A stretch of 64,000 nucleotides of DNA from Shigella phage CT01. The notes under the pieces are model-generated. The model had not been told where the DNA came from. It ran no database searches and saw only the letters and a list, made by a program, of their open reading frames with translations. The stretch lies in the sequence record OK018184. One strand, written 5' to 3'. This document shows, piece after piece, positions 45,306 through 55,342 of the stretch. The translations under genes and the position numbers were made by a program. How positions within the stretch are numbered: the stretch's first letter is position 1; each line of letters begins with the position of its first letter.

Positions 45306-45313
45306 TATAAATA
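45306..45313 (+). promoter_or_regulatory. late promoter TATAAATA upstream of gene 34
   Basis: Exact TATAAATA about 35 nt before the gene 34 ATG. Confidence 0.55.
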
Positions 45314-49225: not shown

Positions 49226-50341
49226 ATGGAAAAATTTATGGCAGAGTTTGGACAAGGATATGTCCAAACGCCATTTTTATCGGAAAGTAATTCAGTAAGA
49301 TACAAAATAAGCATAGCTGGTTCTTGCCCGCTTTCTACAGCAGGACCATATGTTAAATTTCAGGATAACCCTGTCGGAAATCAAACATTTAGCGCAGGTC
49401 TTCATTTAAGAGTTTTTGACCCTTCAACAGGAGCATTAGTTGATAGTAAGTCATATGCTTTTTCTACTTCAAATAATACTACATCAGCTGCTTTTGTTAG
49501 TTTCATGAATTCTTTGTCAAACAATAGACTTGTTGCTATATTAACTAGTGGAAAGGTTAATTTTCCTCCTGAAGTGGTATCTTGGTTAAAAGGAGCAGGA
49601 ACTTCAGTTTTTCCATCAGATTCCGTATTGTCAAGATTTGACGTATCATATGCTGCTTTTTATACTTCTTCTAAAAGAGCTATTGCATTAGAGCATGTTA
49701 AACTAAGTAATAGAAAAAGCACAGATGATTATCAAACTATTTTAGATGTTGTATTTGATAGTTTAGAAGACGTCGGAGCTACGGGATTTCCTAAAAGAAC
49801 ATATGAAAGTGTCGAGCAATTTATGTCAGCGGTTGGTGGAACTAATAACGAAATTGCGCGATTACCAACTTCAGCTGCTATAAGTAAACTATCTGATTAT
49901 AATTTAATTCCTGGTGATGTTCTTTATCTTAAAGCACAGTTATATGCTGATGCTGATTTACTTGATCTTGGAACTACAAATATATCCATTCGTTTTTATG
50001 ATGCATCAAATGGATATATTTCTTCAACACAGGCTGAGTTTACTGGACAAGCTGGGTCTTGGGAATTAAAGGAAGATTATGTAGTTGTTCCTGAAAATGC
50101 AGTCGGATTTACTATATATGCGCAGAGAACTGCTCAAGCTGGTCAAGGCGGAATGAGGAATTTAAGCTTTTCTGAAGTATCAAGAAATGGCGGCATTTCA
50201 AAACCTGCCGAATTTGGCGTCAATGGTATTCGTGTTAATTATGTCTGTGAATCGGCTTCACCTCCAGATATAATGGTACTTCCTACACAAGCCTCTTCTA
50301 AAACTGGCAAAGTGTTTGGGCAAGAATTTAGAGAAGTTTAA
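49226..50341 (+). CDS. 35: long tail fibre hinge connector gp35
   Basis: 371 aa, T4 position. Confidence 0.85.
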   Translation: MEKFMAEFGQGYVQTPFLSESNSVRYKISIAGSCPLSTAGPYVKFQDNPVGNQTFSAGLHLRVFDPSTGALVDSKSYAFSTSNNTTSAAFVSFMNSLSNNRLVAILTSGKVNFPPEVVSWLKGAGTSVFPSDSVLSRFDVSYAAFYTSSKRAIALEHVKLSNRKSTDDYQTILDVVFDSLEDVGATGFPKRTYESVEQFMSAVGGTNNEIARLPTSAAISKLSDYNLIPGDVLYLKAQLYADADLLDLGTTNISIRFYDASNGYISSTQAEFTGQAGSWELKEDYVVVPENAVGFTIYAQRTAQAGQGGMRNLSFSEVSRNGGISKPAEFGVNGIRVNYVCESASPPDIMVLPTQASSKTGKVFGQEFREV

Positions 50342-50372: not shown

Positions 50373-50380
50373 TATAAATA
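50373..50380 (+). promoter_or_regulatory. late promoter TATAAATA upstream of gene 36
   Basis: Exact TATAAATA about 24 nt before the ATG. Confidence 0.55.
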
Positions 50381-50403: not shown

Positions 50404-51096
50404 ATGGCTGATTTAAAAGTAGGTTCAACTGTGGGTGGATCTGTCATTTGGCATCAAGGAAATTTTCCATTGAATTCAGCCGGTGACGATGTACTCTACA
50501 AATCATTTAAAATATATTCAGAATATAATAAACCGCAGGCAGCTGATAACGATTTCGTTTCTAAAGCTAATGGTGGTACTTACACCGGTCCAATTACTAT
50601 TAATTACGGGGTAAATAGTTATCTTCAATTAAGTAATAATGAAACCCCTATCCGAATTCGTTCTGGTGGCGGCACCGGTAATACTCTTGTAATTGGTGGA
50701 TCTTCTGGTGGTATTAGTTTTAGACCTGCAGGTAGTGAAATCACTACTGGACAAATTAGTTTTAGACCTGCAGGTAGTGAAATCACTACTGGACAAATTA
50801 CTATTACGCCAGAAGGTTTGACAACATTCACCAAAGCTGTAAAGGCTCCATCTGTAACTGTTACATCTACTCCTTCCGCAGCATCAGATGCTACTCGTAA
50901 AGATTATGTTGATGGAGCAATAAATACTGTTACAGCAAATGCAAACTCTAGAGTGTTACGATCTGGTGACACCATGACAGGAAATTTAACTGCGCCAAAC
51001 CTTTTTTCACAGAATCCTGCATCTCAACCTTCACACGTTCCACGATTTGACCAAATCGTAATTAAGGATTCTGTTCAAGATTTCGGCTATTATTAA
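50404..51096 (+). CDS. 36: long tail fibre distal connector gp36 (with internal 14-aa tandem duplication)
   Basis: 230 aa; N- and C-terminal regions match recalled T4 gp36; [14 protein letters not shown] occurs twice. Confidence 0.8.
50713..50796. repeat. perfect 42-bp tandem duplication (2 copies) inside gene 36
   Basis: attagttttagacctgcaggtagtgaaatcactactggacaa repeated back to back. Confidence 0.9.
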
Positions 51097-51104
51097 GAGG
51101 ACTT

Positions 51105-53835
51105 ATGGCTACTTTAAAACAAATACAATTTAAAAGAAGCAAAACCGCAGGTCAACTTCCTGCTGCTTCAGTATTAGCCGAAGGTGAATTGGCTATTAAT
51201 TTAAAAGATAAAACAATTTTCACAAAAGATGACTCAGGCAATGTTATAGAATTAGGTTTAAAATATGGAGGAACAATTGATGGTTCTTTAACTGTTAATG
51301 GAAATATAATTGGAAATTTAACAGGTAACGCTGCAACTGCAACGAAATTAAAAACAGCACGAAAAATTAATGGTATATCCTTTGATGGGTCAAAAGATAT
51401 CACGCTAACTCCATCCGACATAAATGTCAATAGCACAACGTTTATAAAAAATAACGGCGAATTACCTGTTGATGCTAATTTAGATACGTATGGGCCTGTT
51501 GAAGAATATCTTGGAGTTTGGTCGAAAGCAACTTCAACCAACGCTCAACCAGCAAATAAATTTCCAGAAAACAATGCTGTAGGTGTGCTAGAAGTATTTG
51601 TGGCCGGTCAATTTGCTGGTACTCAGAGATATACAACTAGATACGGAAATGTTTATATTCGTTCCTTGACTGCTACATGGAACGGAGTAAATGGTCCGTG
51701 GAGTGTGTGGCGAAATATTCAATCCGGTACTCGTTCACTGTCAACAACAATTGATCTTAATGATCTAGGAGGTGCTGAACATCTTGGTTTGTGGCGAAAT
51801 AGTTCAAATTCCATTGCTACCTTTGACAGAAATTTCCCAGAAGAGGGGTCGTCAGCTCAAGGTCTTTTGGAAGTATATGAAGGTGGAAACTATTCTCGTA
51901 CACAAAGATATACAACCAGATTTGGTGTTGTTTATACTCGCTGTCTTACTGCTGCGTGGGATGCTTCTGCGCCTAAATGGGGACCGTGGCAACAAGTCGG
52001 TAATGTCACACCGGCGACTTTCTATGACGGAAACCTGAATGATTTTAAAACTCCTGGGTTATATAATATTTTAGGCACTGATGCCGTTATTAATTGTCCT
52101 ACAGGCGAAGGTTTACCAGCCGTTATTGTTGGTTTGCTGGAAGTTAAACAGCGTGCTTCTGGCGGTGCTATTTTCCAAAAATTTACTACTGCCGGAACAG
52201 GTGCAACTACCCGCGATCGTATTTTTGAGCGCGCATATACCGGCGGTGTGTGGGGTGAATGGAACGAAGTATACACATCTTATTCTCTACCAATTACTTT
52301 GGGTATGGGCGGTATTAAATCTAACTTAGCAGAGTTAGACTGGCAAGCATTTGATTTTGTTCCTGGTAGTATGTTTAGCGTTCCTTTGAACAAAATAAAG
52401 AACATGCCAGCTAATATGGATTGGGGTACGATTGACGGAAACTTAATTATGTTTTCTGTTGGTCCTAGCGAGCACACCAGCACAGGACGTACTGTTCAGG
52501 TTTGGCGTGGAACTGTATCCCAGACAAACTATCGTTATTTTGTCGTTCGTGTATTCGGTAATCCAGGGAGTAGAACATGTACAGTTCGACGCGTTGTTCT
52601 TGAAGACGGATCACATACTTGGACTGCTAAACAAGATTTTAATGGCGCAGTTAACTTTAACTCTACTGTTAACCTTAATAACACTACCACATTTAAAACA
52701 GAAGTTAAATTCCGCTCGTTGAATGCAAGGCGCTCATTTTTCCACTGAACGTACTTTAGCGACTGGTGCAATTAAAACTCGTTTCTTTGGCGAAACATTC
52801 ACTGATGGTACATTATACCTAAATCAGATGAATAATAGCTCTGAACGATTCCATATCAATAATTGGGGAAATTCAGAAGTTGGTCGCGCGGCAGTGATGG
52901 AAGTCGGTGATTCCAAAGGTTATCACTTCTATACGGAACGCAGGACAGATAACAGTTTGACATTTGATGTTGCTGGCACTTTTACCGTGCATGGACCTAC
53001 CGGGATCACTATCAAAAACTCTGTTGGTGCTCGCCACATCTGGTTTAAAGATGATAGCGATGCAGAAAAGGCTGTTATCTGGGCTACAGATGAGGGTATT
53101 TTACATATTCGCAATAATCATGAGGGTTCATTTAGTCATCACTTCCAGGGTGCAATGATTAAACTGGAAGGGCGTGTTCCTTATGGTGCAGCAAAAGGGC
53201 TTATTCGAGGCGAGATAGACGGTGGTGCATATGTTGCATGGAGAGACCGCCCTGCTGGTTTGTTGGTTGACTGCCAGAAAAGTATTGACAGTGCTCATGC
53301 TGTTTGGAAAGCGGTTGATTGGGGGCGTCAATATATCGCTGCTATGGACGTTCATTGTCCGGGTGATGGTAATAATACTGCGGCAGCGGTTCTTCATGTT
53401 CAGGCTGCTGATTATCAATTCCATGCAAGCGGAGAATTTCATGCCACTGGTAACGGGAACTTTAACGATGTGTATATTCGTTCCGATGGTCGTCTGAAAA
53501 TTAATGTTGAAGATTATACAGGAAATGCGTTAAGTTTGATCGGCAAACTGAAAGTGAAAACTTACGATAAAGTTAAATCTCTTAAAGACCGTGAAATTAT
53601 CGGTCACGAGATCGGCATTATCGCACAGGATTTACAAGAAATATTACCGGAAGCTGTAAAATCTTCAAAGGTTGGCAATCTTGATAATCCAGACGATGTT
53701 CTGACAATTTCTAACTCTGCTGTGAATGCTCTTTTAATTAAGGCTATTCAGGAAATGAGTAAAGAAATTAAAGAATTGAAAACTCCTTTCTTTACTAAAA
53801 TTGCTCGCAAAATTAGTAAATATTTTAAATTCTAA
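51105..53835 (+). pseudogene. 37: long tail fibre distal subunit gene 37, broken by a 344-bp frameshifting deletion at 52727/52728
   Basis: Two overlapping ORFs in different frames (51105..52748 and 52723..53835); the missing 344 bp is present in the copy inside nrdA at 35022-35365. Confidence 0.8.
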
Positions 53836-53841
53836 CAACAA

Positions 53842-53858
53842 GGGGCATTGCCCCCTTT
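53842..53858 (+). terminator. hairpin ggggc-att-gcccc after gene 37
   Basis: Inverted repeat directly after the stop codon. Confidence 0.4.
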
Positions 53859-53870
53859 GGAGTATAAATT

Positions 53871-54653
53871 ATGGCAGTAGTTGGTGTTCCTGGTTGGATT
53901 GGAAGTTCAGCCGCAAATGAAACAGGGCAACGATGGATGAGTCAAGCGGCTGGTCAACTAAGATTGGGTGTTCCTTGCTGGATGAGTCAATTTTCAGGTC
54001 GCTCGCGAGAAATTATTCATACACTTGGTGCAGACCATAACTTCAATGGTCAGTGGTTCCGTGATAGATGCTTTGAGGCAGGTAGTACACCTATAGTGTT
54101 TAATATTACAGGTGATTTAGTATCATATTCTAAAGATGTTCCTTTATTCTTTATGTACGGAGATACACCGAATGAATATGTTCAGTTGAATATACATGGC
54201 GTAACGATGTATGGTCGTGGCGGGAATGGCGGTAGCAATAGTCCTGGATCAGCTGGGGGTCATTGTATTCAAAATGATATTGGTGGGAGACTAAGAATTA
54301 ATAATGGCGGAGCTATTGCTGGCGGTGGCGGTGGCGGTGGCGGCGGATATTATTCTCCTTTTTCACAAATGAGATTGACCTTTGGCGGTGGCGGCGGTCG
54401 TCCGTTTGGCGCTCCGGGCGGATCTATTGATATGCAATCAGGAGCAACTGCTGGTACTATTTCTGCACCAGGCTCAGGGTCTGTGAACGGTATCTATAGC
54501 GGCGGGTCTGGTGGTGAAGTTGGATCCGCAGGGGGTAGATGTAATATTCGTGGTCAAGGATATGAATACGATGGCGGAGCTGCTGGTTATGCCGTCATAG
54601 GGTCTACGCCGACATGGCAAAACGTTGGAGCAATATATGGTCCAAGAGTATAA
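53871..54653 (+). CDS. 38: T2-type gp38 receptor-binding adhesin with glycine-rich motifs
   Basis: 260 aa with several poly-Gly runs ([25 protein letters not shown]) between variable segments; too long for a T4-type gp38 chaperone. Confidence 0.75.
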
Positions 54654-54685
54654 TTTTTGAATAAATATCCTTAAAAGGAGGGTCT

Positions 54686-55342
54686 ATGGCAGCACCTAGA
54701 ATATCATTTTCGCCCTCTGATATTCTGTTGGGTGTTCTAGATCGCTTGTTCAAAGATAACGCTACCGGGAATGTTCTTGCTTCCCGGGTAGCTGTCGTAA
54801 TTCTTTTATTTATGATGGCGATTGTTTGGTATAGGGGAGATAGTTTCTTTGAGTACTATAAGCAATCAAAGTATGAAACATACAGTGAAATTATTGAAAA
54901 GGAAAGAAATGCACGCTTTGAATCTGTCGCCCTGGAACAACTCCAGATAGTTCATATATCATCTGAGGCAGACTTTAGTGCGGTGTATTCTTTCCGCCCT
55001 AAAAACTTAAACTATTTTGTTGATATTATAGCATATGAAGGAAAATTACCTTCAACAATAAGTGAAAAATCACTTGGAGGATATCCTGTTGATAAAACTA
55101 TGGATGAATATACAGTTCATTTAAATGGACGTCATTATTATTCCAATTCAAAATTTGCTTTTTTACCAACTAAAAAGCCTACTCCCGAAATAAACTACAT
55201 GTACAGTTGTCCATATTTTAATTTGGATAATATCTATGCTGGAACAATAACCATGTACTGGTATAGAAATGATCATATAAGTAATGACCGCCTTGAATCA
55301 ATATGTGCTCAGGCGGCCAGAATATTAGGAAGGGCTAAATAA
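54686..55342 (+). CDS. t: holin
   Basis: 218 aa, MAAPRISFSPSDILLGVLDRLF... with one N-terminal transmembrane helix; matches recalled T4 holin. Confidence 0.9.
   Translation: MAAPRISFSPSDILLGVLDRLFKDNATGNVLASRVAVVILLFMMAIVWYRGDSFFEYYKQSKYETYSEIIEKERNARFESVALEQLQIVHISSEADFSAVYSFRPKNLNYFVDIIAYEGKLPSTISEKSLGGYPVDKTMDEYTVHLNGRHYYSNSKFAFLPTKKPTPEINYMYSCPYFNLDNIYAGTITMYWYRNDHISNDRLESICAQAARILGRAK

Follow-up and report, generated by a model that had tools for sequence, protein, structure and literature searches.

The gp38 adhesin family has been known since the 1980s. T4 gp38 (phrog_105), which bears the same name, is related to the lambda-type Tfa proteins. It is no component of the virion (RefSeq note), and its partner gp37 binds the receptor itself. 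In the adhesins, five glycine-rich motifs (GRM1–5) alternate with four hypervariable segments (HVS1–4), a layout that Trojet et al. 2011 (PMC3157838) described; their abstract gives the adhesin as the predominant form of gp38. Crystal structures are available for gp38 of PP01 (9V85, the receptor-binding domain fused to sfGFP; PMC12892980) and of S16 (6F45, bound to the gp37 tip). In both, the GRMs make up a polyglycine-II sandwich with the HVS loops projecting from it (PMC12892980; PMC12032242), and PMC12032242 assigns the docking role to the N-terminus on the basis of the S16 structure. The receptor is OmpC for PP01 and Salmonella OmpC for S16 (PMC12892980).

Dependence on the nucleoside channel Tsx was established experimentally for RB5 and T6-like adhesins (PMC3157838) and for WilhelmHis/Bas35, there by tsx complementation (PMC8594841); for KarlGJung it is given in PMC13353012. 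On Tsx itself, the extracellular loops 6 and 7 have been reported to bind T6 (PMC12032242). T2, in contrast, uses FadL/OmpF (PMC3157838). The HVSs are supported as specificity determinants by a GRM/HVS deletion analysis of T6 gp38 (PMC3157838). Exchange of gp38 from HVS2 onwards switched the receptor from Tsx to OmpA, and the single HVS3 change Q206L in RB68 switched it from OmpF to OmpW (both bioRxiv 10.64898/2026.04.02.716166), while PST gained recognition of OmpA with a T6-like adhesin in which only a few HVS2/HVS3 residues are not those of T6 (PMC3157838). An earlier note on the DNA treated here, made from its letters alone, had named the segments between the glycine runs as host-range determinants, which for gp38 adhesins is experimentally established (PMC3157838; bioRxiv 10.64898/2026.04.02.716166).

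Here, gene 38 of the Tequatrovirus Shigella phage CT01 (GenBank OK018184.1, 168,362 bp; PMC13602300) was compared with these systems. The window, i.e. the whole stretch of DNA that was analysed, comprised 64,000 nt of this record, and all positions refer to it. A literature search on CT01 and the related Shigella phage SF2-1 returned no receptor data and no paper characterising CT01. The adhesin family is already known and the CT01 protein is annotated in its own record, as a 'tail fiber adhesin family protein' (UDY80645.1; the tail-fibre locus proteins are UDY80642 to UDY80645). Gene 38 is read here, with high confidence, as encoding a gp38 adhesin that, as a monomer, caps the trimeric gp37 of the distal long tail fibre and carries the T6/Tsx set of loops.

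Experimental

The gp38 alignment comprised CT01 and 10 other adhesins from four genera, according to their records: RB5, T6, T2, JK1, RB18, 232Ecol030PP and SH7 (Tequatrovirus), FL38 (Krischvirus), CGG4-1 (Gelderlandvirus) and KMB17 (Karamvirus). Conservation was scored as identity to CT01 gp38 in nine of the others, the near-identical RB5 being left out. GRM and HVS boundaries are an operational definition of the present analysis. Features and their coordinates are collected in Table 1.

Table 1. Features of the CT01 tail-fibre locus, with positions in the 64,000-nt window
Feature	Coordinates	Strand	Residues	Remarks
TATAAATA, second exact copy	45306–45313			35 nt 5' of gene 34
gene 35 (gp35)	49226–50341			long tail fibre proximal connector
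TATAAATA, late-promoter consensus, exact	50373–50380	+		24 nt 5' of gene 36
gene 36	50404–51096	+	230 aa	perfect 42-nt tandem duplication inside
gene 36 duplication copies	50713–50754 and 50755–50796		adds 14 aa	unique to the CT01 record
gene 37, N-terminal fragment	51105–52748	+	547 aa	terminates by frameshift shortly past the junction
gene 37 deletion junction	52726/52727			2-nt CA microhomology, no flanking repeat
gene 37, C-terminal fragment	52723–53835	+	370 aa	Peptidase_S74; putative gp38-docking distal tip
Peptidase_S74 (PF13884)	53482–53661		aa 254–313 of the 370-aa fragment	8.2e-14
Shine-Dalgarno GGAG	53859–53862			8 nt 5' of the gene 38 ATG
gene 38	53871–54653	+	260 aa + stop	ATG start
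N-terminal attachment domain	53871–53993	+	aa 1–41	PF21721; putative docking on the gp37 tip
linker and beta-helix part	53994–54212	+	aa 42–114	PF05268 match begins; PP01/S16 structures aligned
GRM1, GRGGNGG	54213–54233	+	aa 115–121	mean identity 0.92
HVS1, SNSPGSA	54234–54254	+	aa 122–128	mean identity 0.46
GRM2	54255–54347	+	aa 129–159	mean identity 0.79; G9 run inside
HVS2	54348–54383	+	aa 160–171	mean identity 0.37
GRM3, GGGGGRPFG	54384–54410	+	aa 172–180	mean identity 0.99
HVS3	54411–54500	+	aa 181–210	mean identity 0.41; S202A the only change vs RB5
GRM4	54501–54536	+	aa 211–222	mean identity 0.60
HVS4	54537–54572	+	aa 223–234	mean identity 0.31; Y231S the only change vs RB5
GRM5 and conserved C-terminus	54573–54650	+	aa 235–260	mean identity 0.74; begins GGAAG
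gene 38–t spacer	54654–54685			32 nt
gene t (holin)	54686–55342	+		Pfam Phage_holin_T 1.1e-116; fixes the canonical 37-38-t order

Results and discussion

The open reading frame and the 260-aa product named in the earlier note agreed exactly with the ORF call on the + strand. The protein matched Pfam PF05268 (GP38) with 241.4 bits (cutoff 25, E = 1.3e-71) over the full profile (1–218 of 218), PF21721 (Gp38_N) with 70.7 bits (E = 1e-19) at its first 41 residues, and phrog_2056 'tail fiber protein; host specificity' at 5.6e-112. In the PDB, its sequence matched PP01 gp38 (9V85, E = 7e-80) and S16 gp38 (6F45_D, residues 5–257, E = 2e-49). Pfam, PHROG and the two matched gp38 structures thereby bore out the proposal that gene 38 encodes an adhesin instead of a T4-type chaperone; NCBIfam covers neither the adhesin nor the T4-type gp38.

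Glycine accounts for 62 residues of CT01 gp38 (23.8%), 48 of them within residues 116–260 (33%). The longest runs are G9 at 151–159, for which 6e-4 occurrences would be expected at the protein's own composition, and G5 at 172–176; ten GG pairs occur besides. Five GRMs in fixed order with four HVSs between them and a conserved C-terminal motif were found, the motif W-x-x-x-G-x-I-x-G being kept across the aligned gp38s. Mean identity was 0.78 in the glycine-rich blocks vs 0.39 in the four intervening segments (Mann–Whitney p = 4.5e-12), as anticipated from the conserved glycine runs and variable segments described in the earlier note, and within the same domain conservation was 0.86 at glycine positions vs 0.49 at non-glycine positions. 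The layout is that of Trojet et al., and the name of the beta-helix part follows PMC12892980.

CT01 gp38 was 100% identical to gp38 of SF2-1, 97.3% identical to that of RB5, RB3, IP008, KEP10 and KarlGJung, and 95% identical to that of WilhelmHis. The proteins of RB5/RB3, KarlGJung and WilhelmHis/Bas35 also have 260 aa and the same domain order, and their genes have the same neighbours, gene 37 and t. T6 gp38 was 91% identical over its full length (GRMs 98%), with twenty-three differences from CT01, among them a single-residue indel in the beta-helix part and, in HVS2, proline where CT01 has S165. T2 gp38 belongs to the same family and shares the GRM scaffold (72% identity) and the conserved C-terminus; however, its HVSs are unrelated to those of CT01, its N-terminal domain was 63% and its beta-helix part 41% identical, and tblastn aligned it only at residues 1–114 (49% identity).

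The HVSs taken together were 97% identical between CT01 and RB5, 89% for T6 and 77% for JK1, 44% each for RB18 and FL38, 20% for KMB17, 17% each for 232Ecol030PP and SH7, 16% for CGG4-1 and 14% for T2. RB5 and WilhelmHis, both Tsx-dependent, have the same HVS1 and HVS2 as CT01, and CT01 gp38 carries the HVS set that PMC3157838 gives as common to Tsx-recognising adhesins; HVSs of the T2-like FadL/OmpF subtype were not found in it. Since its HVSs resemble those of RB5 and T6 and not those of T2, CT01 gp38 is by its sequence an adhesin of the T6 subtype and not of the T2 subtype. The label 'T2-type' given in the earlier note is consequently right for the family and wrong for the subtype; the alignment to T2 and T6 gp38 proposed there showed loops that are T6-like instead of T2-like.

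Two observations were made on relatives in the alignment. The gp38 of Escherichia phage JK1 is a mosaic, its N-terminal and beta-helix parts being T2/RB18-like (66% and 36% identical to CT01) and its HVSs T6-like, which makes it a clear case of modular shuffling at glycine-rich motifs. The RefSeq entry of T6 gp38 begins four codons upstream, at a TTG, and thus has 265 aa, whereas its relatives and an ATG preceded by a Shine-Dalgarno sequence point to a product of 261 aa.

Because the loops of CT01 gp38 are the T6/RB5 set, its primary receptor is predicted to be, most probably, Tsx. A less likely alternative is an adhesin that, through a few changes in its loops, has moved from Tsx to another receptor or no longer recognises Tsx alone, the new target being e.g. 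OmpA, as in PST, or another Shigella surface structure. Seven substitutions separate CT01 from RB5, among them S202 (HVS3), S213 (GRM4) and Y231 (HVS4); S210 and D234 set it apart from WilhelmHis in addition, and one or a few HVS changes can suffice to switch or broaden the receptor (PMC3157838; bioRxiv 10.64898/2026.04.02.716166). Moreover, the exact allele is known from two phages, both named Shigella phages, of which SF2-1 was isolated on Shigella flexneri. Against such a shift stand the identity of HVS1 and HVS2 with those of Tsx-dependent phages, the overall HVS agreement with RB5, and the absence of the PST residues 167R/168I, CT01 gp38 having Q166-M167 like T6. A shifted specificity is therefore considered unlikely, and Tsx remains the preferred prediction.

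The record shows two anomalies upstream of the intact adhesin gene. Compared with SF2-1, which is 99.1% identical at the locus, 344 nt of gene 37 are missing, out of frame, so that gp37 (1024 aa in SF2-1) is broken up into two ORFs, one of 547 and one of 370 aa, and the junction creates an ATG at 52723 in frame with the distal part of gene 37. The deposited record carries this split as two proteins (UDY80643, UDY80644). The second anomaly is the duplication in gene 36, 1,973 nt upstream of the deletion, by which gp36 has 230 aa vs 216–218 aa in relatives. The contiguous gene 37 junction occurred in no record of 50,697 phage genomes. All four independent public contigs with identical gp38 showed gp36 at 216–218 aa and gp37 intact (1024, 1024, 1080 and at least 1007 aa), and CT01 departed from each of them at the same breakpoints. 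Repeat-mediated recombination was rejected as the source of the deletion because its flanks share 2 nt only. Both anomalies are probably assembly artefacts; most likely, a contig of about 2 kb was joined wrongly at its two ends, its left overlap remaining untrimmed and a gap on its right side being left open.

A real deletion would prevent normal assembly of the gp38-bearing fibre; the adhesin gene would be intact but non-functional, and the record would represent a tail-fibre-defective variant. The separate annotation of the two pieces in the deposited record agrees with this, as does the microhomology at the junction, which fits an illegitimate deletion. On the other side, the record is that of a named, cultured Shigella phage, which presumably formed plaques, the junction is absent from every phage record searched, gp37 is intact in 4/4 of the contigs with identical gp38, and the pair of unique anomalies looks like the two ends of one mis-joined contig. 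A real deletion is thus improbable, somewhat more so than a shifted receptor. Far less probable still is that the split is real and that CT01 fibres nevertheless work from a 547-aa proximal and a 370-aa distal polypeptide; the distal piece would then be translated from the ATG made by the junction and would contain the tip with its gp38 adhesin, besides the S74 chaperone domain. The two unique anomalies are a matter of quality control, and the CT01 tail-fibre record should be re-verified before it is used for host-range modelling or engineering.

Downstream of gene 38, the spacer to gene t is longer in CT01 than in SF2-1 (20 nt), and the 12 extra nucleotides, TTTTTGAATAAA, resemble RB5 and T6. 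Given this RB5-like spacer and an upstream identity of 97–98%, the CT01 genome is distinct from that of SF2-1.

The gene order in CT01 is 34-35-36-37-38-t-asiA, as in RB5, T6 and T2, and the position of gene 38 between gene 37 and the holin gene t is common to SF2-1, RB5, T6 and T2. At the nucleotide level, similarity to T4 was about 90% or more in genes 34, 35 and the start of 36, was interrupted by a short gap inside gene 36 (50583–50891), and returned at the end of gene 36 and in the first ~50 codons of gene 37, to 51259. No similarity to T4 was found in 51260–54660; at 54661, 8 nt past the gp38 stop codon, it resumed at 96%. The module that differs from T4 therefore consists of the gp37 body and gp38, ~3.4 kb. 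The partner gp37, although interrupted upstream in the record, ends in a Peptidase_S74 domain and an S16-like tip, the C-terminal fragment matching the S16 gp37 tip 6F45_A at 1.2e-5. Peptidase_S74 was present on gp37 of CT01, SF2-1, T6 and T2, whereas T4 gp37 lacks it and has Collar and Phage_fiber domains; these two were missing in the CT01 gp37 fragments and in SF2-1 gp37. Since this module provides a Peptidase_S74 chaperone domain on gp37 itself, a T4-type gp38 chaperone would be dispensable.

In the phage collection, 809 records had an adhesin-type gp38 vs 297 with a T4-type gp38; about 90 of the latter were below 60% identity, and the weakest among the matches listed were annotated as tail fibre assembly proteins of non-T-even phages, e.g. 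HK630 and 9g. The view of the locus as a T4-like backbone with a T2-type receptor-binding module, put forward in the earlier note, accordingly holds as to the difference from T4, but the arrangement is no unusual chimera and the module also takes in gp37.

That CT01 gp38 might be a T4-type non-structural chaperone, aiding gp37 trimerisation and absent from the virion while gp37 binds the receptor, can practically be dismissed: a common gene name and the place between genes 37 and t are all that the two proteins share, whereas BLASTP found no similarity between CT01 gp38 and T4 gp38 (E = 1.9), T4 gp38 matched neither Pfam adhesin model (PF05268, PF21721) and belongs to another PHROG (phrog_105, 'tail fiber assembly'), it has, as the earlier note expected of the T4 type, a shorter chain (183 aa vs 260 aa) and is neither glycine-rich nor equipped with GRMs, and the accompanying gp37 differs in its domains as given above. 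The closest similarity of CT01 gp38 is thus not to a T4-type chaperone, which is what would have spoken against an adhesin, and the adhesin interpretation stands.

Two further observations concern the locus and its database relatives. gp35 matched the Pfam family ILEI (PF15711, interleukin-like EMT inducer) at aa 58–113 (E = 5e-8), above the curated cutoff, and this match is on record for relatives too. A gp38 (PJZ22119.1) and a gp37 (PJZ22120.1) lie on a contig of 171,536 bp that NCBI lists as Bacillus cereus; this is apparently a T-even phage contig with a wrong organism label.

As to expression, exact matches to TATAAATA, the T4 late-promoter consensus, occur upstream of genes 34 and 36 (Table 1). 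From the latter site to gene 38 no further exact copy was found, and genes 37 and 38 have none immediately in front of them; by analogy with T4, this points to a 36-37-38 transcript, of which the site before gene 36 is the likely promoter. In the whole window the motif was not enriched (12 copies vs 8.9 expected), and only its positions 5' of genes 34 and 36 count, as suggestive evidence. A hairpin, GGGGCATTGCCCC, at 53842–53855 between genes 37 and 38 was no better than shuffled sequences (z = -0.76) and was rejected, and no terminator-like sites were found in 53500–55000. Promoter-like sites for sigma-70 near gene 38 were rarer than in shuffles (2 vs 4.2), so none is claimed.

PP01 and S16 gp38 are homologous to CT01 gp38 throughout the receptor-binding domain, but their loops differ, HMMER similarity dropping at the regions equivalent to HVS2–HVS4, and Tsx is predicted for CT01 where those two use OmpC. 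A single-sequence AlphaFold2 model of CT01 gp38 reached a pLDDT of 28.4. Judged from the homologous S16 and PP01 structures, all five GRMs of CT01 gp38 would be expected to pack as a polyglycine-II sandwich core, with the four HVSs as exposed loops that would touch the outer-membrane receptor of the host, while the N-terminal ~41 residues would dock on the gp37 tip. The fibre would trimerise without a T4-type gp38 chaperone, gp37 having its own C-terminal intramolecular chaperone in Peptidase_S74. We infer that the protein serves this function in the CT01 genome itself; reversible binding by the long fibres would then be followed by deployment of the short fibres and contraction of the sheath, as in other T-even phages.

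Conclusions

Gene 38 of CT01 encodes a gp38 adhesin with T6/RB5-like loops in a canonical 37-38-t setting. As a prediction, these loop sequences put CT01 and SF2-1 in the group of Tsx-binding phages. Such a grouping would be useful in choosing phages for cocktails against Shigella and E. coli and in foreseeing resistance that may arise through loss of tsx.
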